Position numbers and translations under genes: made by a program. Under the pieces are notes generated by a model that was given only the letters and a program-made list of their open reading frames with translations, did not search any database and was not told the origin of the DNA. From a virus (lineage: Duplodnaviria; Caudoviricetes), in IMG/VR virus record IMGVR_UViG_3300024058_000001, positions 32,001 to 96,000 of that record: a DNA stretch of 64,000 bases; one strand, 5' to 3'. Shown in pieces: positions 23,830 to 50,121 of the stretch (the stretch's first letter is position 1; each line of letters begins with the position of its first letter).

Positions 23830-24600
23830 TTAAACCTTCTCATCTGTTTCAGGTTGTTGATATTCTTCTTCTTCTTTTTTTTCTTCTTTTTTTGGTTCTT
23901 TAGGATCGTTTTTTCTAATTTCATCTTTCCTTGTAAGCATAGTTTTTTTAGTCTCCCTAATTTTTTGTTCTAATGCAACTCTATCTCCGCCAGTAGTTTT
24001 TAATCTTTCATTAGATAACATTTCTTGTTCTTCTGCATATTTACTGGATATAGCTGACGATTTAATAGCATTTCCATCATATTGATAATTGCAACAATTA
24101 TTCCAATCAACATCATCTGTAATAATTTTGCAAGTACTTGGTTGTTGAAATCTTATACAACGTATGCATCCAAAACCTTCATCTCTCTCATCGTATCCAG
24201 CTTCTTCTTTTAATAATCTAAAAGGATTTGTTTGACTAGGTTTTGCATTTGGCCCCGTCATACGTAATTGACAAGTACCTTCTGGTTCTATATGTCCTAG
24301 AACATTAGTGCATTCGCCTGTTTCTGGAATGTACATACTACAAGTTACACATTGATATTTTCCTTCTATATCATCTGTAACTAAGACAACCATTTTGCCA
24401 TCGCCTAACATAATATTTCTTTTTTCAATTGCTTTTTCAAACTCTTCTTTTAAAATAGATACTGATTCATTCTTAACAAACAAATGGACAAATCTTCTAC
24501 CACCATCTGTTACTGTTGTACCTTTTCTAATTGTGTTTAATTGTTCTTCCGTAACATCAATACGATAACCTTTAATTATAACTGAATATATTTTGCTCAT
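23830..24600 (-). CDS. Protein with shared N-terminal domain and two HiPIP-like Cys4 repeats
   Basis: CVTCSMY...CTNVLGHIEPEGTC and AGY...CIRCIRFQQPSTCKIITDDVDWNNCC; N-terminus homologous to 45814..48114. Confidence 0.55.
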   Translation of the reverse strand: MSKIYSVIIKGYRIDVTEEQLNTIRKGTTVTDGGRRFVHLFVKNESVSILKEEFEKAIEKRNIMLGDGKMVVLVTDDIEGKYQCVTCSMYIPETGECTNVLGHIEPEGTCQLRMTGPNAKPSQTNPFRLLKEEAGYDERDEGFGCIRCIRFQQPSTCKIITDDVDWNNCCNYQYDGNAIKSSAISSKYAEEQEMLSNERLKTTGGDRVALEQKIRETKKTMLTRKDEIRKNDPKEPKKEEKKEEEEYQQPETDEKV

Positions 24601-25346
24601 TAGCTTATCTCCGCATCAGATAATATTGCTTGAATAGTTTGTTCACCTATAAATGCATCGTTTGATATTGTTTCAATATTTATTATCTTAGGTAAAATTC
24701 GATTAGTCTTATTGTAATGCCGAAGCATTTGTAAATCAGATAATAATTGTGCTTCATTATCTTGAATTATTTGATTTGTTTGACTAACAATATTAGATTT
24801 ATTAATTGTACGTCCACCAACACTTACACTAAAGAAATCTTTTGATTCTAAAATTAAAGCTCTTAGTACATTAGTATAAAAACGTTTACAAATAGCAGGT
24901 CTATAATCTTCAGGAATATTATCTTGATCAACAGGTCTATATATTAAAACTGATATTTCACTAGCAGAATGACTAGCTATTTGGAATAACTGTGGATCAG
25001 TAAAAGGAAAGAATGTATATGTTGCTATCAAGGATTCATCGGTAGTTAGTGGAGTAAGTAATACAACACGTCCACCAATAAAATCAATAATATAATCATC
25101 TGTTTCAAATAGCAATTCTGATACACCAGTAATATTATTAAGTTTCTTTATCTTTGGTTTGGGAACAGCTTGCCAGTTACCGTTCTTTGCATCAAAAACA
25201 CCATTAGATGAATCAAACGGACATAATTCTTCGTCCACTACGCTACATAACAGTTTAGTTAATAGCACATCTTTACACAATTGTGTAATCTCTGTTATAT
25301 CATCAGGAATTGCTATTGATGGATCTAAAAAGATAACGTCAGACAT
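24600..25346 (-). CDS. Head-tail connector/neck structural protein
   Basis: DYIIDFIGGRVVL motif; FSVSVGGRTINKS adaptor-like C-terminus. Confidence 0.5.
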   Translation of the reverse strand: MSDVIFLDPSIAIPDDITEITQLCKDVLLTKLLCSVVDEELCPFDSSNGVFDAKNGNWQAVPKPKIKKLNNITGVSELLFETDDYIIDFIGGRVVLLTPLTTDESLIATYTFFPFTDPQLFQIASHSASEISVLIYRPVDQDNIPEDYRPAICKRFYTNVLRALILESKDFFSVSVGGRTINKSNIVSQTNQIIQDNEAQLLSDLQMLRHYNKTNRILPKIINIETISNDAFIGEQTIQAILSDAEIS

Positions 25347-25356
25347 TTGTTACTCC

Positions 25357-25938
25357 TTAATTTCCTATGACGTTGTGTGTTCCGTTAGCGAACACCACAA
25401 GATCATGTGTTTCTCTAATAATACCTGTCTTAAAAAATTCTATTAAATACAATGCAGCATCTAAAAACACAGTTGCATTCCCTGAAGCATCTGTTTGTGC
25501 AACAGCAATAGCAACTGCAGGATTGGATTTGTCAAATATTCTAATTTGAGCATTGGGAATAGGAACAAGTGTAACTGAATTCTTTACAGTTACTGTAACT
25601 GCAAATGCTCCAGAACCTGTCGTACCATCAACTGGCACAACTCTGTATTCTTCTGTTGCCACAGTTGGAATTCCATCTATAGTAGTATTAAACGTAGTTA
25701 AATATTTTGTAAAAGATGCATTAGATGCAATAGGAAATTTAAAAAACCACCTGTTAGTGGCACCAATTCTAGTCATAGCAGTTGATGCTAAATCTTCTTC
25801 TTCAGGCCCCCCATTAATATGAGAGATCCTAACAGTAGGCGTAGTATAATCTGCAGGAAATGTTGGTTCACTTCCTGACAGTCTTAGCACTGTTAAGAGT
25901 ATAGTATTTTCTTGACTTTGATTAAATTCAAATCCCAT
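25357..25938 (-). CDS. Structural protein with C-terminal carboxypeptidase-regulatory/Ig-like domain
   Basis: VTVKN...PIPNAQIRI...TDASGNATVFL..ALYLIEFFKTG. Confidence 0.55.
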   Translation of the reverse strand: MGFEFNQSQENTILLTVLRLSGSEPTFPADYTTPTVRISHINGGPEEEDLASTAMTRIGATNRWFFKFPIASNASFTKYLTTFNTTIDGIPTVATEEYRVVPVDGTTGSGAFAVTVTVKNSVTLVPIPNAQIRIFDKSNPAVAIAVAQTDASGNATVFLDAALYLIEFFKTGIIRETHDLVVFANGTHNVIGN

Positions 25939-26392: not shown

Positions 26393-26414
26393 AAATACTC
26401 CTTTTTAATGTTTA

Positions 26415-27746
26415 TTAATGATTTCCTACAGCCATTACACCAACGTTATCTCTGTCTGATTCACTACCATTATTGTCACGAATTGAAACATCTACACTAT
26501 CTGTAAATATGCCAAACCCTCCGGTACTATCAATAGTAACATAACCAACAGCCTTTCCTGTTCCAGCTATTACGTAATTTGCATCAGCAAAATCAATGTC
26601 CCAGTTTATTGTAGCTTCCCCTGTTCCTCTGTCCGTTATACTAGATACATTATAACTATCTACTAAAGTTGCTGTACCTGATGCTTGATCGTAATGAATC
26701 CATCCTTGTATTAACTGCTTTGCAACTGATTCATATGGATGTTGTGCATACGATATTGCTGTATCACCGTCTACTATACACATACCATCAAAGTAAACAG
26801 TTGTAGTATTTCCATCATTTGTCAATCGTAGGTTTATATTCGTCGCAGATGCATCAATAGTACGTGTCACAGAAATAAATTCCCATGCACCGCCACCAGT
26901 ATGATACGGAGAATTTGAACTTCCTCCACTATCACCTAATAATAAACGTCCTGCATTTGCAGCAGTTGCTCTTATCCAACACGAAAAAGTTAGATCACGA
27001 CCTCTGAAAATCGTGTTCTCCGAAGTAGTAATAACGGGTATAAAAAAACGACTTAGAGAGTTCCCACTTGCATCTGATAGCAACGCAAGAGAAAATTCAC
27101 CAAATAGAACATTCCCTGCACCAGATTCCTGAGAAACTGATCCACCATCAAGCAACGTCCACGCATTAAGCGCATCTGGTGGAACACTTGTCCCATTTCC
27201 CCATTGACTGAAATTTCCGTTTTCTATTAAATTTGTAAATTGTTGGGTTTCTCCACCTGATAATCCCGCAGCAGGTGCATCTTTAAATATTGCATTACCT
27301 GTGCCAGTGTCTTTTGTTAATATTTGTTCATTAGTAGCACCAGCTACATCTGTAATCTTATTTACTGCTGTTTGTCTAGCATCGTTTATCCAAACTGATC
27401 CGTTAAATCTTAAGAAATCATCAGTAGTAACGGATGTTAGAGTAACATCAGATAAGTCATTAAATGCTGACGCACCTGATACATCAATAGTAACTACACC
27501 TCCACCATCATCTGTTAGCTTTCCGTTTGTAACATTAATTGTAGTGACATTCGATACATTTGGTGCGCCGTCTGTCTCTTTAACTGTTAATGGTGTTCCA
27601 GTAAGATCAAGTGATACTTGTCCCCCACTTTGATCCGTAAGCTTCCCGTTAGTTACACGAATAACCGAAACATTGCTTACTACAGGACTGCCATCTTCTT
27701 CTCTTACTGTAACAAATTGTGTTGAACCTGTAAAACCTTGTGACAT
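26415..27746 (-). CDS. Tail fibre protein with carbohydrate-binding-like domain
   Basis: Two N-terminal TVxExDGxPxVSNV repeats; NLIENGNFSQW CBM-like domain; SYNVSSITDRGTG C-terminal fibre domain. Confidence 0.7.
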   Translation of the reverse strand: MSQGFTGSTQFVTVREEDGSPVVSNVSVIRVTNGKLTDQSGGQVSLDLTGTPLTVKETDGAPNVSNVTTINVTNGKLTDDGGGVVTIDVSGASAFNDLSDVTLTSVTTDDFLRFNGSVWINDARQTAVNKITDVAGATNEQILTKDTGTGNAIFKDAPAAGLSGGETQQFTNLIENGNFSQWGNGTSVPPDALNAWTLLDGGSVSQESGAGNVLFGEFSLALLSDASGNSLSRFFIPVITTSENTIFRGRDLTFSCWIRATAANAGRLLLGDSGGSSNSPYHTGGGAWEFISVTRTIDASATNINLRLTNDGNTTTVYFDGMCIVDGDTAISYAQHPYESVAKQLIQGWIHYDQASGTATLVDSYNVSSITDRGTGEATINWDIDFADANYVIAGTGKAVGYVTIDSTGGFGIFTDSVDVSIRDNNGSESDRDNVGVMAVGNH

Positions 27747-32822: not shown

Positions 32823-33833
32823 TTAGGCTCCGACGTTTATGATTTTTCCCTGGAACGCCTCTGCGGTCAACTGCAGAACGGTAAACTCAGCAACTAAAGT
32901 ACGATAAGCGGATTGAAGTAAAGCAAGATCAATCGAAGATAGTGGCATTAAATCCACCATCTGGATTGCATTACCATCTTCAAGAACTGTCTTGTCATCA
33001 ATAACAAGAATAAAAGCATTACCCGCATCGGGAGTGATGTATCTTGAACCGATTACATCAACAACACCGAAAGGAGACAGCCAACGAGTAACCGAAATTC
33101 CCGCAGGAATATCAGCCATCGTGCCTGCACCAGCCTGGAAGAGTCTGTAAAAAGAACCCAACACAAGCTCGTTAAACTTCTGTAAGTCACGATAAGACAT
33201 GACTACAGCTTGAGGCTTACCACCCACCGTTACAATATTTTGTTCGACTGTAGTAATGTCGGACAGAGCTAAAGGAGAACCAGTATTATCAAGCACGTTA
33301 TCCGTGATTTGCTTTGCTAATCCATCGAATTGAAGACCAGTACCAGTGGAAGAATCTCCATTGATAATAGCCCATTCCTCCATGAGAGCAACGTTAAGCA
33401 TCTTTACTTTTACTTGATGTTTCTTAATGTCAGTGTAAGTTCCACCAGCCATTTGCTCGAAGAACGAAACATTAACGGTATCACCAAGAGAAGTATACGG
33501 AGCCGACCTAAACTTATAGTTAGGCTGACTTGCTTGAGGTAGTCCACCCTTTTCAAAAAATCCCTGTTCTGGAGCAGTACCACCCAAAAACAAATGTCCA
33601 GCAGAATCGGCTCCCGTTGAAACTGTGGGAGTCAATTGATACCAAGCATGGGCTTTTCCATTACCAGCGATTCGATTAAAACGATTACGTAAGGGAGTAT
33701 CAGTAGGAGCCATAATTGCCATTTCAGCCTGCAAGTCTTCACGGACTAGCAAAAGACCGCTAACATCTGTGGAAGAAATTGCTTTCTGAATGTCATTAAT
33801 AGCTTGCTCTACTATTTGCGCGTTATAATTCAT
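32823..33833 (-). CDS. Major capsid protein (HK97 fold)
   Basis: After the protease-scaffold; DTPLRNRF, EEWAIINGDS...FDGLAKQI; strong RBS; 336 aa. Confidence 0.9.
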   Translation of the reverse strand: MNYNAQIVEQAINDIQKAISSTDVSGLLLVREDLQAEMAIMAPTDTPLRNRFNRIAGNGKAHAWYQLTPTVSTGADSAGHLFLGGTAPEQGFFEKGGLPQASQPNYKFRSAPYTSLGDTVNVSFFEQMAGGTYTDIKKHQVKVKMLNVALMEEWAIINGDSSTGTGLQFDGLAKQITDNVLDNTGSPLALSDITTVEQNIVTVGGKPQAVVMSYRDLQKFNELVLGSFYRLFQAGAGTMADIPAGISVTRWLSPFGVVDVIGSRYITPDAGNAFILVIDDKTVLEDGNAIQMVDLMPLSSIDLALLQSAYRTLVAEFTVLQLTAEAFQGKIINVGA

Positions 33834-33889: not shown

Positions 33890-35821
33890 TTAAAGGGCTT
33901 TACCGAACTTAGCATCAAGCATCTTATTGACAACATTGTCTTTAAAACGCTCTTGATCGGGGGTCAACTTTGTTCCTTCTACACGCCATTTGGTTACAGT
34001 ATCAATATCTTTCTGTAGAGTATTATCTACTTTACCATCAGCATCTAGACTTTTTTCAATCTTGAACTTTCTCGGCTTAGGTTGACGCATTTGCTGTTCT
34101 ATCCCATCGAATCGCTTTCTCAGCGAATCCACTGCATCTACTACTTTTGATAGATCGTTCTGTGATCCATCGGCTTTCCTACTTCTTCCTGCTAAATAAC
34201 CTGCACCAGCAGCAGCGCCAACTTGGGCGCGACGACTACGAACTGCACGACCTGCAATATGCGTCATAGCTGCACGTGAACGTGCTACGTCTTTTACTCT
34301 AGATGCACCAGTTTTTACTTTCCCTGCCACACTTCTCGCTTGGCCTGGAACTTTACTAGCTGCACTACGAACTGCACCAACTGCGCGTTGTCCTACTGTG
34401 CGTCCTGCACTAATTGCGCGTTGTCCTAATTTACGACCTGCTCTAAGAGCTGCCATTGCAGCACTGCCTAAAGCTTTTTCTGTTGCTTCATCATCATCTT
34501 CATAATTCTTTTCTGTATCCTCATCGCCTTCTGGTTCCGTATCTTCATACGGATATGCACCTTCAGGATCTTGAGTTTGAGCATCTACAGTAGCGGGATG
34601 TTTACCAGGATATTTATCACCTTCGGAATCATGGCCATCTTTTTCGACCTCTTCTTCCGTTTCATCGTGATCTTCCTTTTCAAATTCTCCCTCTACTTCT
34701 ACATAATCAGCCTTTTCTGGATCGTCATCACCATATGGATAGTTGCCTTCGGCGTGTTGATTTTGTGGATCAACATCCGCAGCAGCTCCTGAATCTAAGG
34801 GATCAGTCTCCCCCAGGTCTGGATCTGATGTCGAACCTTTAGGCGTTCCTTTTGAACCCTCAATGGGTTTATAAGCACCTTCATATGCTTTGTCGATAAT
34901 ATCGGCAAGATTTGTGACAACCTCTACCAATGCATCGACTTTCTTATTCAATTCATCTATTTTCACGTTATTCCCTCCTCGGTAAACGTCTTTTACATGC
35001 GATTCAAATGCAGAACCTAATACTTCTTGAGCTTTGTCAAGTACTGCATCTGTTTCTTCAGTTACTAAATTATACTTCTCCATAGTTTCTAATGCCCGAA
35101 CTGCATGAACTTTATCTGGCATTGGAATTAATCTTTCCTTTGTTACTACTGAATCTTTAACAGACTTTCTAATAACACCAAAGTCGTCATCACTCAGTTT
35201 TTCTAATTGTTCTGTGTTTAATACTTTTCTAACCAACGAATCTGCTTTTTCTCTATGTTCCTTAACTTCTGTAAAAAGTGGATCGGTAGCTTCTGTTATA
35301 ACAACTTTCTTGATATCCTCAACAATTTCTGTTTGATAAGGTATACCATTAATGCTTTTTATTAAAGAAAAAGAACATCCAGGATTTGCAGGATTATCTA
35401 CTAGAGATAATTCATTAAGCTTATACTTGGTAATTCTACTAATATTTCTTGAACTACCAGTATCTAAGTCTTTAATTACTTCTTGTACCTTATTTACTGT
35501 TTGTCCACCAATAGAAAAACCATTCAAAATCCCTTCTTTAATCTTTTCCCATGTGTCACCTGCACCCTTCGATATATAGGCTTCTATCCAAATTTTCTTA
35601 GTATCATCATTTGGAGTAATTTCTATAGCCTTGCCTACCGCTTTGGCTTCGTGCATCTCACGGATATTTCCTTGCCATTTACTAAATGCTTCCTTGCTAC
35701 CATTATAGTCAACTATCTCGTTTTGTTTATCAATTTCCTCAGTAGTTGCCCAACCAGCGACTGTACGCTTTTCTGTATCTATTTTCTCAATAGGTACGTA
35801 CAAATTAAACTTAGTGCTCAT
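33890..35821 (-). CDS. Prohead protease (HK97/XkdF type) fused to scaffold, with a cationic insert
   Basis: NIREMH..KAVGK, GFSIGG, ELSLVDNPANP; acidic middle; coiled-coil C-terminus. Confidence 0.9.
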   Translation of the reverse strand: MSTKFNLYVPIEKIDTEKRTVAGWATTEEIDKQNEIVDYNGSKEAFSKWQGNIREMHEAKAVGKAIEITPNDDTKKIWIEAYISKGAGDTWEKIKEGILNGFSIGGQTVNKVQEVIKDLDTGSSRNISRITKYKLNELSLVDNPANPGCSFSLIKSINGIPYQTEIVEDIKKVVITEATDPLFTEVKEHREKADSLVRKVLNTEQLEKLSDDDFGVIRKSVKDSVVTKERLIPMPDKVHAVRALETMEKYNLVTEETDAVLDKAQEVLGSAFESHVKDVYRGGNNVKIDELNKKVDALVEVVTNLADIIDKAYEGAYKPIEGSKGTPKGSTSDPDLGETDPLDSGAAADVDPQNQHAEGNYPYGDDDPEKADYVEVEGEFEKEDHDETEEEVEKDGHDSEGDKYPGKHPATVDAQTQDPEGAYPYEDTEPEGDEDTEKNYEDDDEATEKALGSAAMAALRAGRKLGQRAISAGRTVGQRAVGAVRSAASKVPGQARSVAGKVKTGASRVKDVARSRAAMTHIAGRAVRSRRAQVGAAAGAGYLAGRSRKADGSQNDLSKVVDAVDSLRKRFDGIEQQMRQPKPRKFKIEKSLDADGKVDNTLQKDIDTVTKWRVEGTKLTPDQERFKDNVVNKMLDAKFGKAL

Positions 35822-40933: not shown

Positions 40934-41468
40934 TATAAGCCTCTTTTAGCGATTTATGCTTAGTCTGAAGTTGAAATAAATTTGTCGTAATTTGCGCCAT
41001 TGCTTCATTATTATGCGCGTTTCTCATATGATTATAAAAAAAATGAACTAATTCGTGAAATAACACCCATTCGTCCCCATTATAAATAATGATATCTTTA
41101 CCTATTAATTTATCTAAATTTACTCCTGCATGATATCTACCGTTATAAAATTTTCCGATAGCCGTAGGTGGATCATCTAAGGTCTCGGCTAAATAAATTC
41201 TAACCTTACTATTTACTTTATCAGCCGAAAAGAATTTCTTAAGAACTCCGTACATCTGTTCTGCCGTTTCTGCATCTGCTGCATACGAAATAATATGGTC
41301 TGTTTCTTGAGTAACTTTTGTACTAACTAGATTATAATCTTTAAGTTCTATTCTAAATCTTTTACCTGGATTAATATACAATAATATAGAATAGCAAAAT
41401 AATATAACTAAAATAACTCTAATTACTATTTTTCTTAACTTAACCACTATCGTCCTCATCAAATCCAA
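40875..41468 (-). CDS. Membrane-anchored HEXXH zinc metallopeptidase-like protein
   Basis: N-terminal TM helix; VLFHELVH...NEAMA. Confidence 0.65.
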   Translation of the reverse strand: MDLMRTIVVKLRKIVIRVILVILFCYSILLYINPGKRFRIELKDYNLVSTKVTQETDHIISYAADAETAEQMYGVLKKFFSADKVNSKVRIYLAETLDDPPTAIGKFYNGRYHAGVNLDKLIGKDIIIYNGDEWVLFHELVHFFYNHMRNAHNNEAMAQITTNLFQLQTKHKSLKEAYNEIDTKYRAGIISEIYETN

Positions 41469-43230
41469 TTCTTAAATCTGCGTCTATTCCTTGTTTTCTT
41501 AATTCTTTTACAGTTTTATCTACTAATTTATTTTGTTCTTTATATTTCTTTTTTCTATTAACCGAAACTTTTATAGTATTAGTACCATCTGAAATAGAGG
41601 GAGGTACCGCATTTTCCATTGTAGGACGACCTGCATCGCCATCAACTTGTTGTTCAGGTTCAGGCCCTGGTTGCAATCCAAAAGGATCGGTTCTCTCATT
41701 TTGTTGAAATCCTCGATTAGGCATACCGCCTAATTCATCAAGTTTATCAATATCTTTAACTGGAACCATACCAACACCAGTTTTAATCATTTGTTCATCT
41801 CCGCCCTCAATGGGCTTCTTACCAAGTTTCTTTCTTCTTTCATTAATTGAAATAACACCAGAATCCATGTCAAGTCTGTCAACCTGCGATTGCTGGATAT
41901 CGTCTTTTAGCTCTGCACTTTGCCATTCAAATTTTACATCCTGAAAACCAAACTCTGCCTTTACAATCTCTTCATTAAAAAAAGAAGCTAACAAATTTAA
42001 AAGTGTTTTAACTCCTCTTGCTTGTGATAGCTTTGCTTGAACTTCAGCGGTAGTACGGTGAAAGTCTAAGACAAACCCTATGTCCTGTGGGCTTATTCCG
42101 TATACCGCGCATTTAATGGCAACTGTCCATTTTAAATATTCCATCATTTGCATGTCTCTATTAGACTGCACACGCATAGGAATAAAATCTAATTTGTCAG
42201 ATCCTGATGTAATTAATAGTTTATGAAGACCACCTCGACCTTGTACTTCTTGTTCCCATAAATTTTGAAACATCTGTCGTTGGTCTTCAGATACATTTTC
42301 TCCAAGATTTAGCACACCAGGAGGAACATTAGAATTTTTAAAATAATCAATATTATATTCATCTGCATATAAACTTGCAGTAATAATATACGCAGCTACT
42401 TCTAATGGAGAAACACCATAGCCAGTTTGTTGAGGATTTTGAGATATATATAGTAATTCGTCATTTGTAAATTCTGCACGAATTACTCCTTTATCTTCCC
42501 ATACATATGCAGGTTCTGGTGCTTTAGGTATCGTTCTATCTTCATTTCTATAAATCTTTACTTCTTGTCCTGGTAATGGATAAATCTCCGCCAAATTTCC
42601 AAGATAATCATAATTTTTTACAATAACACCAGAATCGTAAATTAAAATATCATCTAAAACTAACTCTAATAATGTTCTAAATGTTGTTTCTGTTTGATTT
42701 GGATGCTCTAAAATACACTTAACTTTGTATTTATGTTCTTCTGCATTCTGTTTAACTCGTTTTGCCCACGCCTTAAAAAACCATCTAACGGCTTCTCTTT
42801 TTGCTTTTTCATCTATAGCCTTTTCAATAATTGGAGGAAGACTACTTCGTATTTCATCTTGTATTTCTTCTGGTAAAATTTGAGATTTAAACGGAGGAAG
42901 ATCATATCCATAAGGATTAAGAGAAGTTAAAATAGATTCTTCCCACCTATCCAATTCAGCCTCTAAATTATCGGTATCAGGGACTATATCCCATTTAGTC
43001 TGACTAATAAATCCTTTTATTACTCTGCGAATAGCCCAAGTAACTGGATCAGTATTCGCTAATCGCCCTAATGTTGCAGCACTCAGAGTAAATTGTCGCT
43101 GAACTTTTTTACCAGTGGTATTATTAAGAAATCTAAACATACCTTTGCGAGGTACGGGTTCACCACGACCTGGATCAAGCTTTAGTGCTTTACTAAAGGT
43201 ATTCTGAATTTTCTTAATTAAGTTTGCCAC
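41440..43230 (-). CDS. Portal protein
   Basis: GYGVSPLE, YFKNSNVPPGVL, CAVYGISPQDIG, SINERRKKLGKKPIEGGD. Confidence 0.93.
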   Translation of the reverse strand: MANLIKKIQNTFSKALKLDPGRGEPVPRKGMFRFLNNTTGKKVQRQFTLSAATLGRLANTDPVTWAIRRVIKGFISQTKWDIVPDTDNLEAELDRWEESILTSLNPYGYDLPPFKSQILPEEIQDEIRSSLPPIIEKAIDEKAKREAVRWFFKAWAKRVKQNAEEHKYKVKCILEHPNQTETTFRTLLELVLDDILIYDSGVIVKNYDYLGNLAEIYPLPGQEVKIYRNEDRTIPKAPEPAYVWEDKGVIRAEFTNDELLYISQNPQQTGYGVSPLEVAAYIITASLYADEYNIDYFKNSNVPPGVLNLGENVSEDQRQMFQNLWEQEVQGRGGLHKLLITSGSDKLDFIPMRVQSNRDMQMMEYLKWTVAIKCAVYGISPQDIGFVLDFHRTTAEVQAKLSQARGVKTLLNLLASFFNEEIVKAEFGFQDVKFEWQSAELKDDIQQSQVDRLDMDSGVISINERRKKLGKKPIEGGDEQMIKTGVGMVPVKDIDKLDELGGMPNRGFQQNERTDPFGLQPGPEPEQQVDGDAGRPTMENAVPPSISDGTNTIKVSVNRKKKYKEQNKLVDKTVKELRKQGIDADLRIGFDEDDSG

Positions 43231-43633
43231 TTTTTATCACCAGTTCTATAAGGGCTATTATATTTTTATGCTCTAATAGTTCCATTTGATTTCTATATGT
43301 TTTTCTAGCTTTCTCATCTTTGACATATGTCTTAATCAAAAAATGAACAAATTCATCTAGTTCATTAAATCTTACATGTAATAATTCATGAGCAATCGTA
43401 CTATCTAATTCTTTCGGAGATTCTAATAAAAGTTTTTTGTTTAGTTCTATGTCTGCGGTACGGGTTTCTTCATCCACGTACACCGTTGCGTATGATCCGC
43501 TAATTTTATCTTTCTTTTTTATCTTGGATGGTAATACAATATCAACCTCAAATTTGTAATCACTAATCCCAAGAAGTTTAGCGTATCGCACAACTTTCTT
43601 TTTTATATCGCTTTTTAATCTTTTTTTTATCAT
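43214..43633 (-). CDS. SprT-like HEXXH zinc metallopeptidase
   Basis: LDSTIAHELLH...LEH. Confidence 0.7.
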   Translation of the reverse strand: MIKKRLKSDIKKKVVRYAKLLGISDYKFEVDIVLPSKIKKKDKISGSYATVYVDEETRTADIELNKKLLLESPKELDSTIAHELLHVRFNELDEFVHFLIKTYVKDEKARKTYRNQMELLEHKNIIALIELVIKSGKLN

Positions 43634-43895
43634 CTCTTTTGAAATATTTCCTGCTCTTTATTTTTTTATCTTTATTCTTTTTTATTTCTTTTTCTGCAAG
43701 ATACATATCAATTAATAAATCATGAATCTCTTCTTTTGTAATTGCAGGCTTTTTAGATGCAATTTTATCAGCAATTTCCATAAGTTCACCAGGAAGTTTT
43801 TTTCTTTCGCGTGGATGAAAATAGTCACTATACATAAATATCATCTGCCTTATCACAAAGATTACCGTTACACATGTCAACGGCCACATTTCCAT
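43578..43895 (-). CDS. Hypothetical protein
   Basis: N-terminal hydrophobic stretch; basic C-terminus overlapping the next gene. Confidence 0.45.
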   Translation of the reverse strand: MEMWPLTCVTVIFVIRQMIFMYSDYFHPRERKKLPGELMEIADKIASKKPAITKEEIHDLLIDMYLAEKEIKKNKDKKIKSRKYFKRDDKKKIKKRYKKESCAIR

Positions 43896-43897
43896 AA

Positions 43898-44179
43898 TTA
43901 TATAATTCGTTCAGGCAACCAGGCTGAATATGCAGGTCTAACTCTTGGTGTATCTGATGCAATTTCGTTATCAGGTTGAGTAACCCTATTAGTCATCTGA
44001 TTTTGTTGGTGCTTTTGGCCGTGAACGATGTCCTCATTTTTCTTTTTTGGTCGTTTAATTCCTAAATCTTCTCTAACAAGTAAAAGTCCAGGAACATCTA
44101 TAGAAGTTATTTCTTTTCTAATAGTTTGAAGTTTTCCTAAATAATCTCTAAGTTGTTCTATGAATTCCAATTTGTTCAT
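43898..44179 (-). CDS. Small protein carrying a copy of the capsid protein N-arm
   Basis: IRKEITSIDVPGLLLVREDL vs capsid IQKAISSTDVSGLLLVREDL. Confidence 0.7.
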   Translation of the reverse strand: MNKLEFIEQLRDYLGKLQTIRKEITSIDVPGLLLVREDLGIKRPKKKNEDIVHGQKHQQNQMTNRVTQPDNEIASDTPRVRPAYSAWLPERII

Positions 44180-44183
44180 TTTA

Positions 44184-44501
44184 TTATCCTGTAAAATGGC
44201 TTATTACTCTAATTATAGTCCAACCTAGTCCTATAATTATAACTAATACTTTTAGTACAATAGACAAAAATTCCGAAGCCCCTTGAACTTTCAATGACTT
44301 AGTTTCTAATGGCTCTAATCTCTTACCATAAGCTTTAATAGCGTTACCATTTTCTTCTATTAAATGAGGCAAATGATTTGTAACATGAGTATTTACTTCA
44401 GTAACAAGTTTGCCTAATTCAGTAACCTCATATTTAAGACCATCTACTTCATTTTCAATATGTTTTATTCTACCTTCGTATCTATCATCTGCCATATTCA
44501 A
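44184..44501 (-). CDS. XhlA/holin-like coiled-coil membrane protein
   Basis: Coiled coil, TNHLPH motif, single C-terminal TM helix. Confidence 0.5.
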   Translation of the reverse strand: MNMADDRYEGRIKHIENEVDGLKYEVTELGKLVTEVNTHVTNHLPHLIEENGNAIKAYGKRLEPLETKSLKVQGASEFLSIVLKVLVIIIGLGWTIIRVISHFTG

Positions 44502-44504
44502 ACC

Positions 44505-44837
44505 TCACCTTGTTTCCAAAACAAATTTATATTGCTGTAAAAAATTATCCCAATCTGTAAATTTAAAAGCTTCATTATCTAACATTACATCGTATTTTGG
44601 TTTTCCAAACATTATGCTATCATATTTTATATTGTTTTTTTGAAGCCATACTTCTGTATCCATACCTAAACTAACATCTCGTTTAGAATATATTAAAATT
44701 GTATGATTTAATTGTTTCAATTTATCTAAAGCTTCTTTAGCCCCAGGTAATACTTCACACTTTGAAACTTGATCAAGTGCATGCCAATTGGATATAGGAG
44801 TACAAATAATTTTATCTAGCTCTAACGCAATAATCAT
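44505..44837 (-). CDS. HAD-like (capsule-biosynthesis phosphatase-like) protein with degenerate motif I
   Basis: IIALELDKIIC...HTILIYSKR...TEVWLQKNNIKYDSIMFGKP.YDVMLD. Confidence 0.7.
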   Translation of the reverse strand: MIIALELDKIICTPISNWHALDQVSKCEVLPGAKEALDKLKQLNHTILIYSKRDVSLGMDTEVWLQKNNIKYDSIMFGKPKYDVMLDNEAFKFTDWDNFLQQYKFVLETR

Positions 44838-44846
44838 CGCTCACCT

Positions 44847-45803
44847 CTATTTAAAATAATCAAAACTAAAACGTCTACGTCCTTCTCTTGGGCGTATTTG
44901 ACGGCCATTAACTAAATAATTTCTATATGTTGCTGTATTAAGAACTTGATAAGTATTTGCTACTCTGCTAGAAACAATTTTTCCCTCATCAAATGCCCCT
45001 AACTTAGAATCAAAATAATAAACTAAATCGCCTGGTTTAAATCGACGAAATATTCTAAACTGTTTATCTATAGCATTATCTCTCTTACTTGTCTTTGAAC
45101 GTCTTTTACCAGCAGCATAGCCTGCTGCAGGCAATGCACTTATACCTGCTATACGCGCTGTTTTACCTGCAATTCTTCTTTTACCTGCACGTGTACCCAT
45201 ACTTTGTCTAAATGTTTCTGCTTTATACCTTTGTTTACGTCCTATATTACGTACCTTAACTCCTACTGAACCTAATTTACGTCCTATTGTAGAGACTGCA
45301 CTAGCTATTCCTTTTTTTGTATTTACATTTGCAGTTGTTTCAATTCCTCTTTCATCTGACATTACAACAGGAACCTTTTCATAGCCAAGTTCTTTAAGAG
45401 CTACAAATCTATGATGACCATCTGTTACCATTTTACCAGGTTTTCCATCATGGTCAATTTCGGTATAAACTAATGGTTTAATATCTCCACTAATTTTAAT
45501 AGCGTGTTTTATTTTGTCTACCTTGTTTCGGTCTAATGTTCTATTATATGGATTTGGAAGCAACTCAGAAATGTTAATTTCTTCTATTTTTATCTTTACC
45601 ATTCTTCCCCATTGACTATTTCCGCGATGCTCACTTCTAGGGCCAATGGCAGAAGATCCTTCACTCGAAGGATTAAAATTAAAACCTTCTGCTTCAGGCG
45701 GATTAGTGCTAATAGCAGGAAATCTATATTCCCGTGTTTCAGCCTTATTTATCTGCCTAGTTAAATCTCTTAGTTGAGTCCATGTTTTCATATTTGTTAT
45801 CAT
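44847..45803 (-). CDS. Multi-module protein: QLRD leader + ParB/Srx-like domain + cationic cassette + SH3/Tudor-like domain
   Basis: LLPNPYNR...IKPL...VTDGHHRFVALKELGYEKVPV; TKK-GIASAVSTIGRKL; FKPGDLVYY. Confidence 0.7.
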   Translation of the reverse strand: MITNMKTWTQLRDLTRQINKAETREYRFPAISTNPPEAEGFNFNPSSEGSSAIGPRSEHRGNSQWGRMVKIKIEEINISELLPNPYNRTLDRNKVDKIKHAIKISGDIKPLVYTEIDHDGKPGKMVTDGHHRFVALKELGYEKVPVVMSDERGIETTANVNTKKGIASAVSTIGRKLGSVGVKVRNIGRKQRYKAETFRQSMGTRAGKRRIAGKTARIAGISALPAAGYAAGKRRSKTSKRDNAIDKQFRIFRRFKPGDLVYYFDSKLGAFDEGKIVSSRVANTYQVLNTATYRNYLVNGRQIRPREGRRRFSFDYFK

Positions 45804-45813
45804 CTTGTAATCT

Positions 45814-48114
45814 TTAAATTATTCGTGTTTTAGTTCTAGCAGCAAGATTTCTAACCCTTCCCAAATCTCGATATGTTTTGGATCTTGTAGCTGCCTGTGC
45901 TCTGCCAATTTGTTTAATTCTTCCTAATTGTTGAACCTGCTGTCCCATCATTTGCCCAATTTGTTTTCTTTCTCTAACTATTCTATTGTATTGTGCATTA
46001 AGTGAAGGCTTCTTTATTTTTTGTCCTATTGAACGTATTTTACGTCCTACTGCACGTGCTGCACTGCCTATACCTTTTTCTGTATCTTCTGTAATACCAT
46101 TCCAACCGCATCGTTTTCTTAAATTCTTTAATTCCTTTTTAATATTTTGTAATTCCATTACCTTTTTTCTTTTCTTACGTCCGTATGCTGACTTCATCCT
46201 ATATCCCATCATTCTAGCTCCTGCAGTTCCTACCTTTATACCCAAATTTCTTCTACGAGCACCTTTTGGCAATTTTCCTGCTGCGATACGAGACAAAGCT
46301 CCACCAGGACGTTTTAGTTCCGCTTTAGCACCAGCGTCAAGACCTATATTTATTAATTTATTACCTACACGTCTAACAACAGATCCCACTTTAGATCGTA
46401 AACCTTTTTCTGTATCACCATTTTTCAAATTATCTAGTTTCTTTTTAACATCTGTAATAGATACTACCTTATAACTTTTCTTAGGTTTACCAAACGCGCC
46501 TAAACTATGTGCAAGATAACTACCTTCTGCAACAGGAAGGGCCACTCTTGCTACTCGTCCCACACGTGTTCTTCCAAATTTAGCTCCTGCACGTTGGGCT
46601 GATAATCCTGCTCTACTTCTTACTCCGCGTGTTCCTTTCCATCCTGCTTTTGTTCCTGAAATTAACTTAGGAGCTAACTTTCTGCCTATTGCTAACGCTC
46701 CACGTCCTGCAGCTACCAAAGCAGCTCCATATTTTTCTACATCCTCTGTATCATCCATATCTTTTTCTATATCTGCCATTTGGTCAACTTTATCAAAAAG
46801 CTCCATAATATCATTTAGTTCTTCAGGAACTAAATACTTTATCAGTTCCTGTTGTTCTACTGGAGATGCAAATTCCAACATGTCAATGATCTCAGCAATA
46901 CTAAAATCTTTAGATAAATCCTTTGTTTGTGCACTTTTTTCTCTAAATACTCTGCCTAACAATCCTGATCCAGGTGTGTGAGCAACTGTTGTTACAGGTT
47001 TTGATGCACCAATGGCATCTCTTATTTTGCCAGTTCTAAAATCTTTAATTCCTCCACCTAAAGTTTGAGTTGTATATACTCTGTTTACTGGAATTTTTCC
47101 TACGTAAGTCTTTATTTTACCTCCAAGTTGCCTTAGCCTCTTTATACCAGCACGTCTAGTCGCTGGATGTGCTAACGCAGCAATAGCACCAAGACCTGCA
47201 GCAGCACCCGCAATACGGCCAGCTTTACCACGTTTAGAACCTTGCTCTGCTTTATTAATAATTTCCATATGACCTTTAGGATCGTCACACCATATTTTTT
47301 GTAATGAACCATCTGAACTTACCTTAGTAACAGAAACACCTTTCATTGCAGGTAAACCAAATGTTGGCTCAACTGGTTGTCCTGGTTGTCTTAATGGCCC
47401 AGGCACTTGCGCTTCTTCTGGTTCTACAGGTGCTTCAGGTACTTCAGGAACACCACCAGGTTCAACACTAGTATCTACTTGTCCTTTACAATGTGGACAA
47501 ACTACTTGTAAGGGTTTTGCTTCTTCTGGAGTTTCCGCAGATTCCTCAACATCTTCTTGAGGTTCCTCTTCTGGAAGTTCTTCTTCTCCTTCAGATCCAC
47601 CAAATTCTCCTGTTTCTAAATCTTCAGGAACTTCCTCTGCAGATTCGTCTTGAGGCTCTTCAATTACTTCCCCATTTTCATCAACAACATCTTCTTCTTT
47701 TTCTTCCTCTTCGGGCAAACGCTCTTGTGGGTCATTAGCGTTAGTTGTAGCTATTTGTTCACCAGGTTGTTCAGCTTGTCCTTGCATTTCTTGATCTGTC
47801 TGAGGATTTATATTATCTTCTACAGGTTTATCTAATACCTGTTCAGCCGTAGATTCTACCACTTCTTTTTCTTTAGGTGGTAACGCATTTTCTAATTCTT
47901 CTAACTCTTCTGGAGACATATTAGCCAATATGCCCTTTTTAATTTCATTATCAAACTCTTGTTTGCCAACATCGATTCTACCCTTGCTCGTAAATACATG
48001 AACGATTTTCTTTTGGGTTTCAGTTGTAACTTCACCCTTTTTAATAGCGTCCAAGTCAGCTTGGGTAAAGTCAAATCGTTGACCCTTTACCACGATTGTA
48101 TACACTTTACTCAT
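45814..48114 (-). CDS. Putative internal head polyprotein (acidic region + four cationic cassettes)
   Basis: Glu/Pro-rich N-half; cassettes after IINK, DVEK, DTEK, DTEK. Confidence 0.7.
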   Translation of the reverse strand: MSKVYTIVVKGQRFDFTQADLDAIKKGEVTTETQKKIVHVFTSKGRIDVGKQEFDNEIKKGILANMSPEELEELENALPPKEKEVVESTAEQVLDKPVEDNINPQTDQEMQGQAEQPGEQIATTNANDPQERLPEEEEKEEDVVDENGEVIEEPQDESAEEVPEDLETGEFGGSEGEEELPEEEPQEDVEESAETPEEAKPLQVVCPHCKGQVDTSVEPGGVPEVPEAPVEPEEAQVPGPLRQPGQPVEPTFGLPAMKGVSVTKVSSDGSLQKIWCDDPKGHMEIINKAEQGSKRGKAGRIAGAAAGLGAIAALAHPATRRAGIKRLRQLGGKIKTYVGKIPVNRVYTTQTLGGGIKDFRTGKIRDAIGASKPVTTVAHTPGSGLLGRVFREKSAQTKDLSKDFSIAEIIDMLEFASPVEQQELIKYLVPEELNDIMELFDKVDQMADIEKDMDDTEDVEKYGAALVAAGRGALAIGRKLAPKLISGTKAGWKGTRGVRSRAGLSAQRAGAKFGRTRVGRVARVALPVAEGSYLAHSLGAFGKPKKSYKVVSITDVKKKLDNLKNGDTEKGLRSKVGSVVRRVGNKLINIGLDAGAKAELKRPGGALSRIAAGKLPKGARRRNLGIKVGTAGARMMGYRMKSAYGRKKRKKVMELQNIKKELKNLRKRCGWNGITEDTEKGIGSAARAVGRKIRSIGQKIKKPSLNAQYNRIVRERKQIGQMMGQQVQQLGRIKQIGRAQAATRSKTYRDLGRVRNLAARTKTRII

Positions 48115-48250: not shown

Positions 48251-48454
48251 TCATTTTTTAATTCGCCTCTTAGCCAGCATATGCCCATGCAATCTGTTTG
48301 ATATATCATTGCTTATAGGAATTATTTCATAGCCTTTATCTTCTAATTCAAAAATTAATTCAGCAGTGAAACATTGGAATTCATCACCGTTAACTATATC
48401 TCTAAAAAGCTTAACTATTTTAGCTTTTTCGTTAATTTCCAGACGTATTTTCAT
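48251..48454 (-). CDS. Hypothetical protein
   Basis: 67-aa ORF in operon. Confidence 0.45.
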   Translation of the reverse strand: MKIRLEINEKAKIVKLFRDIVNGDEFQCFTAELIFELEDKGYEIIPISNDISNRLHGHMLAKRRIKK

Positions 48455-48818
48455 TTTTCTTAATTACTCTTTTCTTATTTGTATAAGGATTAACTAAACC
48501 TTTTTCTATCATTATATCATTAACAGATTTTTTGCTGTTATCTAAATATAAAAATGCAATATAACGGTCATGATATTTTCCTGGCTTCAAAGATTTCAAC
48601 ATGATTTCTTTATTTAGTATTGTTTCTTCTAAATATTTTTTTGCAGCTAAAGCCTTTTCTAAATTCTTTTTATCTTTTAATTCGTATGAATCAATACCTG
48701 CAAATCGAATTTTAATAGTACGAACAATCCTAAATCCTAAATCTACGGCTACTACAACTGTATCTCCATCAACAATTCTAGTGACCATCGCGTTATATTT
48801 AAACATTTTTTCCTCCAT
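48432..48818 (-). CDS. Thermonuclease (SNase-like)
   Basis: RIVDGDTV..VDLGF...IRFAGIDSYE...GKYHDRYIA...VNDIMIEKGL. Confidence 0.88.
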   Translation of the reverse strand: MEEKMFKYNAMVTRIVDGDTVVVAVDLGFRIVRTIKIRFAGIDSYELKDKKNLEKALAAKKYLEETILNKEIMLKSLKPGKYHDRYIAFLYLDNSKKSVNDIMIEKGLVNPYTNKKRVIKKNENTSGN

Positions 48819-50121
48819 TAGCTAGTTTTACAGCAGCAGGAATATCTATAATTCCTCTTCCTTGTTCACGATCAGCATATCCTATACCTTTAGCTGTTGC
48901 CCTTAAAAACATTTTTACCTTTTCGCCTCTATTCCTAGACTTCGGTAATTTTGCAGCTTCTATTAATAAGGCAGCAGCACCTGCAACATGAGGAGTTGCC
49001 ATAGAAGTTCCAGACATTTTTTGAAACATTGTATTATTACTGTCCACAACAGTACATTTATCTACTTTTTGATCTGCTGTTTTAACAGATGTAATACCAT
49101 CTCCATAAGGACATCCATGTTCCGCTTTAATACCACCACCAGGAGCTACAACATCAGGCTTACTTAAATTTCGGTTCCTATCTATAACAGGGCCACGTGA
49201 ACTATACGTTGGTATCCTGTTTATTTGATCAACCGAACCTACTGTTATAACTTTTTCTGCCACACCTGGAGATGATATTGTGTCGGGTCTTGGCCCTTCA
49301 TTACCTGCAGCAACAACTACAACAATTCCTTCTTCTGCTAATCTGTTGGCTTCCCGTGACATGGCATCATTTGCATGACCACCGCCACCAAGACTCATGG
49401 AAATAACATCTGCGCCCTGACTAGCTGCCCAAGACATACCTCTAATTATTCTATCTGTTGTATTGCGTCCTGATGCAGCAAGAACTTTTGCATCAATTAA
49501 CGCAACTTTTGGAGCTACACCTTTATAGGTAGAATCATTACTTGCGACTATACCCGCGCAATGCGTACCATGCCCAACTTCGTCTAATTTCCTTGGATAT
49601 AATTTGTTTTTAATTTGATTAAATAATGGAAAATAACTTTTACCTGTAAAATCTTGCCTTGCTACTACTTTTCCTTTTAAACTTGGATGATTATCATTTA
49701 TACCAGTATCTATGATAGCTACTTTTACGCCTTCACCTTCGTATCCAGCACCATGAAGATTAAAAGCACCGCATTGATTCACAGCTTTGTTCATCATAGT
49801 GTGTACTTCGACTACTTGTTCTATTTCTACATTTAAAGAATTGCTAATTCGTAGAATTTGTTTTTCTGATAAATAAGTAGGGAATTCAACAACTATGGCA
49901 TTAATACGTTTATGAACTTGAAGTATCTTCCCGCCTAATTCTTTTAATTGTTTAAAATCGAAACCAATCTTTTTAAGATATCGATAAACAAGAAATAATA
50001 GAACAAACCCCAATATAGGATGATCTGCAAAAACAGTTTTTGCTATTTTACCTACTTTTAGATAAAAAAAATATCTATTTGTAAGTAACTTTTTATCGAG
50101 GGGTTGTTGATATAAACTCAT
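48799..50121 (-). CDS. Subtilisin-like S8 serine protease with N-terminal TM and propeptide
   Basis: AIIDTGI, GHGTHCAGIVA, AAGNEG, SGTSMATPHVAGAAALL. Confidence 0.95.
   Translation of the reverse strand: MSLYQQPLDKKLLTNRYFFYLKVGKIAKTVFADHPILGFVLLFLVYRYLKKIGFDFKQLKELGGKILQVHKRINAIVVEFPTYLSEKQILRISNSLNVEIEQVVEVHTMMNKAVNQCGAFNLHGAGYEGEGVKVAIIDTGINDNHPSLKGKVVARQDFTGKSYFPLFNQIKNKLYPRKLDEVGHGTHCAGIVASNDSTYKGVAPKVALIDAKVLAASGRNTTDRIIRGMSWAASQGADVISMSLGGGGHANDAMSREANRLAEEGIVVVVAAGNEGPRPDTISSPGVAEKVITVGSVDQINRIPTYSSRGPVIDRNRNLSKPDVVAPGGGIKAEHGCPYGDGITSVKTADQKVDKCTVVDSNNTMFQKMSGTSMATPHVAGAAALLIEAAKLPKSRNRGEKVKMFLRATAKGIGYADREQGRGIIDIPAAVKLANGGKNV

Follow-up and report, generated by a model that had tools for sequence, protein, structure and literature searches.

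The proteins that phages pack into their heads often counter host defences or help to take over the host, entering it together with the DNA, and, to our knowledge, how tailed phages beyond T4 and P1 choose proteins for head packaging is largely unknown. In T4, the internal proteins IPII and IPIII carry a capsid-targeting sequence (CTS), which is removed by the prohead protease gp21 (PMC9958956), and P1 DarB carries an N-terminal capsid signal (PMC9024508). Encapsulin cargo is loaded into an HK97-fold shell by short, mostly C-terminal targeting peptides, such as NTGGDLGIRK of T. maritima, through a hydrophobic-Gly-hydrophobic pattern and basic residues (PMC7925596). In phage P74-26, the portal-vertex protein (PVP) has an N-terminal arm that, within the aperture, forms a sheet together with the P-domain of the major capsid protein (MCP) and inserts Lys2 into the groove of the DNA (PMC12407722). 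In 80alpha, a single protease, Prp, cuts the capsid protein, the scaffold protein and ribosomal protein L27, which have an N-terminal motif in common (PMC5744158).

Here we analysed a 93-residue protein encoded in the head-gene block of a phage that has no close relative among the GenBank phages. An earlier note on this DNA had read the protein as carrying a copy of the N-terminal arm of the MCP, and had proposed that this mimic docks in the capsid lattice, with the portal vertex as a possible location, and acts to regulate size or assembly or to anchor cargo. We compared the genome (G000) with eight near-complete relatives (G001–G007 and G009; nine genomes in all, 80–105 kb). The comparison leads us to favour, with about an even chance of being right, a reading in which the first ~48 residues of the protein are a portable tag for head targeting and docking, with a copy of the MCP arm at its core and a probable cleavage site after a conserved Lys.

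Head-gene block and capsid protein

The genome is a single 104,771-bp record with 34.7% G+C, classed as a virus, and the window, the whole 64,000-nucleotide stretch analysed here, comprises its bases 32001–96000. All of the genes discussed belong to one head-gene block on the minus strand, and coordinates refer to the window unless another record is named. At the upstream end of the block are genes for a subtilisin-like S8 protease (48799–50121; phrog_3677, 1.7e-72) and a phrog_452 endonuclease (48432–48818). The block further encodes a charge-segregated 766-residue protein (45814–48114), a ParB_N-domain protein (44847–45803; Pfam PF02195), which is untagged in this phage, a HAD-like protein (44505–44837), an XhlA-like membrane protein (44184–44501), the tag-bearing 93-residue protein (43898–44179), a 105-residue protein (43578–43895) and, directly upstream of the portal gene, a 139-residue SprT/YgjP-like HExxH metallopeptidase (43214–43633). 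The portal protein is encoded at 41440–43230 (PF04860, 1.8e-33). A SprT-like gene is also present in G001, G004–G007, L083, L091, L100 and L101. The gene at 33890–35821 encodes a prohead protease, S78-like over residues 5–157 (phrog_9427, 9.5e-39; PF04586), whose long C-terminal part is acidic and basic and resembles a scaffold, and the 336-residue MCP is encoded at 32823–33833; these two genes are ~10 kb from the tag gene and the portal module.

The MCP belongs to the SU10_MCP family, scoring 54.7 bits against a gathering cut-off of 24.1 (PF17236, E = 1.4e-14; also phrog_752), and its best matches among GenBank phages are the MCPs of Thermus phiYS40-like and Staphylococcus Twort-like phages, at <30% identity. 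An AF2 model built with 20 sequences reached a pLDDT of 56 and was not used, whereas the model built with 69 diverse homologues has a mean pLDDT of 86 and an HK97-type fold. A Foldseek search with this model matched SPO1 (9vel, 5e-19), SU10 (7z48) and HK97 (1ohg), and the closest solved folds are those of SPO1, Pa223, family 2 encapsulins, SU10 and HK97.

Residues 1–40 of the MCP have pLDDT values of 56–67 in the monomer model, with a helix at residues 5–15; an arm that becomes ordered only in the lattice is the usual picture for such low-confidence N-terminal residues. The segment copied in the 93-residue protein (residues 12–34; 33732–33800, minus strand) lies within this arm and includes K17 and G26–L34. 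Residue 17 is Lys in 64 and Arg in 4 of the 69 diverse MCPs, and within the motif L29-x-R31-E32-D33-L34 the terminal Leu is retained in 56 of the 69, followed by R31 (44), E32 (41) and D33 (39). Among 20 closer MCP relatives, V24, G26, L27, L29, R31, D33 and L34 are invariant. The phiYS40 MCP has SLEREDLEPEL near its N terminus; the motif might, as a guess, correspond to GALRREILDD of Twort-like MCPs or to LTIRDLL of HK97. In a profile search of PDB sequences, the N-arm was left unaligned and the motif was not placed on a solved capsid.

In two relatives, the MCP gene is split directly after the REDL motif by insertions of ~0.9 kb, with exons at record positions 87535–87624 and 85747–86637 in G005 (L057) and at 26401–26514, 25377–25445 and 24331–25167 in G007 (L065). 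G007 has a second insertion 23 codons further on, of 209 nt, which Rfam identifies as a group I intron (RF00028, 65.9 bits). The end of the copied segment is therefore near an intron insertion site.

The 93-residue protein and its copy of the capsid arm

The open reading frame at 43898–44179 starts with an ATG that is preceded by in-frame stop codons, has an AGGA 10 nt upstream of the start and is spaced 4 nt and 2 nt from its two neighbours; it is a real gene. Homologues in the protein collection are 96%, 74% and 61% identical, and remoter ones in L017/G007, L100 and L101 occupy the same slot, between the XhlA-like and the SprT-like/portal genes. The protein has no Pfam or PHROG match; a tblastn search of the GenBank phages gave a sole chance match (E = 3), a protein-based IMG/VR scan gave no match and the ESM Atlas gave no usable match. 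Longer fused forms were absent at E ≤ 10 among 5.8 billion proteins, a database for which the tag is too short. The protein is basic (pI 9.4), and its Atlas model, with a pLDDT of 0.38, predicts that it lacks a stable fold of its own.

The protein can be divided into four parts, all on the minus strand. An amphipathic helix (approximately residues 3–16; 44132–44173), delineated by the alignment of 16 tags described below, is common to the tags but not to the MCP. It is followed by the copy of the MCP arm (residues 17–39; 44063–44131), which consists of a hydrophobic-x-Lys element ending at K22, an eight-residue linker and GLLLVREDL. A tag-specific extension, G-I-K-R-P-K-K-K-N (residues 40–48; 44036–44062), follows the copy, and the carrier-specific C-terminal body (residues 49–93; 43898–44035), delineated by tblastn with same-position ORFs in relatives, contains HGQKH and SDTPRV motifs.

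Residues 17–39 match MCP residues 12–34 without gaps, with 15 of the 23 residues identical (BLASTP, E = 5e-7). As the earlier note had recognized, the IRK segment of the small protein and the IQK segment of the capsid protein share the run of nine identical residues GLLLVREDL, and the putative cleavage Lys lies within the copy. This Lys proves near-invariant across the MCP family. The codon differences that the note quoted also hold exactly: the two DNA segments are 64% identical, and the codon is the same for just 6 of the 15 shared residues, which argues for conservation at the protein level and against recent gene conversion. A six-frame search of the 104,771-bp genome with the loose motif [LIVM]x[LIVMT]R[EQ][DE][LIVM] hits two sites only, one in the tag and one in the MCP, and the match is well beyond chance even when the implicit all-against-all comparison behind its discovery is allowed for. 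On the sequence comparison, the copy is genuine and under selection as a protein sequence; the tag core is paralogous to the N-terminal arm of the MCP itself and reproduces exactly the two features that the arm conserves best, the Lys (K17) and L-x-L-V-R-E-D-L. The possibility that the 93-residue protein as a whole is an MCP paralogue or fragment was rejected, since the similarity is confined to 23 residues, the protein matches no Pfam or PHROG family and the Atlas pLDDT is 0.38.

A family of tags on different carriers

Records of related phages and metagenomes scanned with a degenerate DNA pattern yielded a set of 16 tags, which align over ~50 residues. Their layout comprises an amphipathic helix (...L-R-D/N-x-x-G-K-L...), a hydrophobic-x-Lys element 8–10 residues ahead of the core in every tag, and the core V-x-G-L-x-L-[VT]-R-E-D-L, followed in most tags by G-[IV]-R-[RKH] and a Lys/Arg cluster. 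An HMM of the 16 tags finds exactly one tag in each of G000, G001, G004, G006, G007 and G009, and none in G002, G003 and G005. It also hits the MCP N terminus in every one of the nine genomes (E = 3e-6 to 3e-11); across these genomes, nothing besides tags and MCP N termini scores below E ~1. The motif singled out in the earlier note is thus retained, in the close homologues, in the 16-tag family and in six of the nine genomes.

The degenerate pattern V-x-G-L-x-L-x-R-E-D-L-G matched 3 IMG/VR and 52 metagenome stretches, mostly by chance. A recurrent false family of 11 bacterial ORFs with ...GLKLIREDLGDCTRCKL was ruled out by context. In 10 of these look-alikes, on metagenome contigs L078, L085, L093, L097, L103, L109, L112, L116, L118 and L125, V-x-G-L-[KQ]-L-I-R-E-D-L-G is followed by DCTRCKL, and the eleventh has I for A/V; they presumably resemble family-4 uracil-DNA glycosylases. 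The match in L076/L113 was likewise ruled out by context as chance.

The tags are found on at least five types of carrier across the relatives, with only one tag per genome. The tag is N-terminal in proteins of 91–99 residues (G000, G007, P0001–3, L100 and L101) and in a 354-residue protein of G006, in which the copy continues to ...REDLQEDMAIGGP and is identical to that genome's own MCP at 17 of 27 residues (E = 1e-6); this longer copy argues that the tag descended from the MCP gene. It is C-terminal in proteins of 62, 76, 114 and 137 residues (L129, G004, L083 and G001, respectively) and in ParB_N proteins of 294–317 residues (L080, L092 and L128), which tblastn and Pfam identify as homologues of the protein encoded at 44847–45803. 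It lies near the C terminus of a 762-residue ParB_N protein, identified in the same way (L091:2309–4594, minus strand), and is internal in a very basic 830-residue protein encoded just upstream of the portal gene (G009 and L018–L021). The 762-residue carrier has, besides ParB_N, sub-threshold matches to PGDYG (24.6 bits) and S-adenosylmethionine lyase (22.9 bits), and is possibly anti-restriction cargo. Wherever enough flanking DNA is available, the carrier genes belong to the head-gene cluster, on the same strand and upstream of the portal gene, the tag gene always a few genes away from it.

In G001, G004 and G005, an orthologue of the 93-residue protein is encoded at the same gene position, but its arm copy is replaced by a different sequence, while the helix, the basic patch, YGQK and the C-terminal motif are kept. 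Together with the differing carriers, these untagged orthologues argue that the arm copy is a module that moves between carriers and is not fixed to one gene. The presence of the copy on ParB-like enzymes, the 830-residue basic protein and other carriers strengthens the cargo-anchor option of the earlier note. Its proposal of a size or assembly regulator has fared worse: three of the nine genomes have no tag and the orthologue of the small protein is untagged in three, and the dispensability of the tag in close relatives and its fusion to enzymes make a size-regulating role unlikely.

The modular distribution bears on two readings that we consider improbable to different degrees. The 93-residue protein could be an unpackaged assembly chaperone or inhibitor, capping the site on the scaffold or the MCP to which the MCP arm binds and so preventing premature or aberrant polymerization. 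The protein is small and predicted to be unfolded, and it copies residues that the MCP itself uses; a parallel can be drawn with SaPI1 CpmB, which reportedly competes by mimicry for a capsid–scaffold contact. However, the fusion of the tag to enzymes and very large basic proteins fits delivery better than inhibition, and the tag is missing from close relatives, so that we regard this role as very unlikely. The copy could also be a functionless relic of a partial duplication of the 5′ end of the MCP gene, perhaps through intron or homing-endonuclease activity at that site, given that the MCP genes of G005 and G007 are interrupted directly after the motif and that the second insertion in G007 contains a group I intron. 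The divergence of synonymous sites, combined with core residues that stay the same in all 16 tags and on five or more kinds of carrier, makes such a relic almost certainly the wrong explanation.

The middle residue of GLxL is L, N, E, G, S, H or M in the tags, compared with L or M in the MCPs. This freedom suggests that the tag would bind as an extended strand contacted on one face, whereas the MCP arm would be buried on both faces in the lattice. An L-x-L strand with a free middle residue is also what an added strand would have in a lattice reading that develops the proposal of the earlier note, in which the tag would fill vacant N-arm sites on MCP P-domains or E-loops around the portal, where a penton is missing, with few copies at the portal vertex and the basic tail on the DNA. 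The adjacency of the gene to the portal module, the basic cluster after the copy and the precedent of the P74-26 PVP (PMC12407722) all agree with this placement. Against it, carriers as large as 762–830 residues, and ParB enzymes, are hard to accommodate at 5–10 portal sites, and three of nine relatives do without the tag; we consider it quite unlikely.

Putative head-targeting mechanism

The tag invariants V, G, L, L, R, E, D and L, together with a Lys at −9 (±1), are the best-conserved residues of the MCP N-arm. Because the two sets of invariants coincide, the tag and the arm are expected to have the same partner, the same enzyme or both. On this basis, we infer the binding, cleavage, packaging and partner of the tag as follows. 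During prohead assembly, the tag would make the contact of the MCP arm through V-x-G-L-x-L-V-R-E-D-L, with either the core formed by the protease-scaffold protein or the inner face of a neighbouring MCP as its partner, and this contact would carry the fused protein into the head. The prohead protease would then cut after the conserved hydrophobic-x-Lys, as is presumed for the MCP. In this phage, the product would be a basic, unfolded peptide of ~71 residues that starts like the mature MCP, with the arm copy followed by KRPKKK, and it may stay in the head beside the DNA as an internal protein. The S78-like protease-scaffold protein is a candidate both for the enzyme that cuts after the Lys and for the partner of the tag, and the SprT-like metallopeptidase, encoded beside the tag gene, is a second candidate processing enzyme.

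Together with a hydrophobic residue at position −2, the Lys resembles a processing site. The pattern [ILVTM]-x-K-[AGE]-[ILVM]-[GSTA]-[ST] has six occurrences in the genome, of which head proteins account for five, although the pattern was derived from the sites themselves and exceeds expectation only modestly. Three of the sites, with x-[TI]-x-K followed by [AG]-[IL]-[GSA]-S (compare DIQK/AISS in the MCP), begin Arg/Gly/Ala-rich basic cassettes in the 766-residue protein (46083), the ParB-like protein (45320) and the protease-scaffold protein (34483), all on the minus strand. Common processing at these Lys residues is possible, and the pattern gives only a hint of it.

The conservation around the Lys raises the alternative that the segment is only a shared protease-recognition element, for the prohead protease or another enzyme, so that the 93-residue protein would be co-processed, or would act as a decoy that times MCP maturation, with no docking involved. 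The near-invariance of the Lys in the MCPs and the hydrophobic-x-Lys 8–10 residues ahead of the motif in every tag fit such a site, the conserved core of 8–9 residues is the size of a protease subsite footprint, and a SprT-like metallopeptidase gene lies beside the tag gene here and in relatives. The common N-terminal motif of the 80alpha capsid protein, scaffold protein and L27 is shared only by way of one protease (PMC5744158). However, the strongest conservation (GLxLVREDL) lies 9–18 residues past the Lys, beyond the usual reach of subsites; REDL-type motifs persist as part of the arm in very distant MCPs, such as that of phiYS40; and a bare cleavage site would have no need of the tag's own conserved helix and basic tail. 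We rate a shared protease site without docking as unlikely.

Several points count against the tag as a head-targeting and docking element. The tag is dispensable, being absent from three of the nine related genomes. The tags do not detectably track their own MCPs and are no closer to them than to others, in a comparison of little power, since only 7 of the 21 MCP positions vary. Finally, no one simple rule fits all carriers, because a cut at the Lys would leave the arm copy on an N-terminally tagged product and remove it from C-terminally tagged cargo.

Comparison with known systems

As a head-targeting element, the tag would act in the manner of the T4 CTS, to which it has no sequence similarity, and of the N-terminal signal of P1 DarB. 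In T4, a short amphipathic leader in front of a protease site brings unrelated proteins into the prohead; the corresponding elements here would be the helix at residues 3–16 and the conserved hydrophobic-x-Lys. As with the CTS, several unrelated carriers bear the tag (at least five types across the relatives), and small basic internal head proteins, the products of CTS processing in T4, are also predicted here. However, the CTS is ~10 residues long, strictly N-terminal and thought to bind the scaffold core, whereas the tag is ~50 residues long, may be N-terminal, C-terminal or internal, and has a core copied from the arm of the MCP itself. Cleavage here would probably have Lys at P1, as opposed to Glu in T4, and the protease here is S78-like and fused to a scaffold-like region. 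The P1 DarB signal is N-terminal, whereas the tag varies in position, differs in length and copies the shell protein.

Two other systems share single features with the tag. Both here and in 80alpha, a conserved N-terminal motif is common to the capsid protein and a second head protein, but the 80alpha motif is purely a host-protease site of ~10 residues that is removed from both proteins, unlike the tag. The P74-26 PVP, an accessory protein of small size, contributes a strand from its N-arm to the MCP P-domain at the inner face of the capsid and places a Lys on the DNA; it has a globular domain outside the capsid and is described neither as a copy of the MCP arm nor as a portable tag.

The closest parallel is T4 gp61.1, a 54-residue protein annotated as hypothetical (L130:4967–5131). 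Residues 2–38 match residues 57–93 of gp23 (L131:6946–8511) with 46% identity over 37 residues (E = 6e-9), and the match runs from a leader across the cleavage junction, the gp23 maturation site, into the first residues of the mature MCP; a PKKKK patch comes next. The 93-residue protein has its parts in this same order. Unlike the latter, gp61.1 is encoded in an unrelated phage lineage, by a gene that adjoins the primase gene and not a head cluster, and the two proteins have no sequence similarity. A literature search found no paper studying gp61.1.

The end of the tag, EDLG[IV]R[RK], resembles the ...GGDLGIRK end of the encapsulin peptide, and DLG[IV]R[RKH] is present in 13 of the 16 tags, in several of them at the C terminus; the resemblance to NTGGDLGIRK covers six residues, too few for statistical weight, and serves as a lead only. 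Among the folds most similar to that of the MCP are those of family 2 encapsulins. In contrast to the tag, the rest of which copies the shell protein, encapsulin peptides do not copy theirs. An encapsulin operon has a shell gene without portal, tail or packaging genes, whereas the shell protein here is a phage MCP, accompanied by portal, protease and tail genes and encoded 10 kb away from the tag. In an encapsulin-like scheme, which we would hold only as a doubtful speculation, a portable copy of the MCP arm with a DLGIR-type end would clip onto the inner face of the HK97-fold shell, anchoring ParB-like enzymes and basic DNA-binding peptides until they are cut free, and the similar design of gp61.1 would make this a general, unrecognized principle. 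Such a scheme, if true, might link phage cargo loading and encapsulin targeting in evolution.

If the head-targeting reading is correct, a search for copies of the MCP N-arm would provide a readable rule that could predict packaged proteins from sequence alone, pointing in these phages to ParB-like proteins and basic peptides, and the tag would be a compact ~50-residue handle for loading foreign proteins into phage heads. Capsid-targeting tags as such are already known; beyond T4 gp61.1, the present case extends the design to another capsid lineage, to 16 related tags and to ParB-like cargo, and the parallel with gp61.1 makes the arm-copy idea testable in a model phage.
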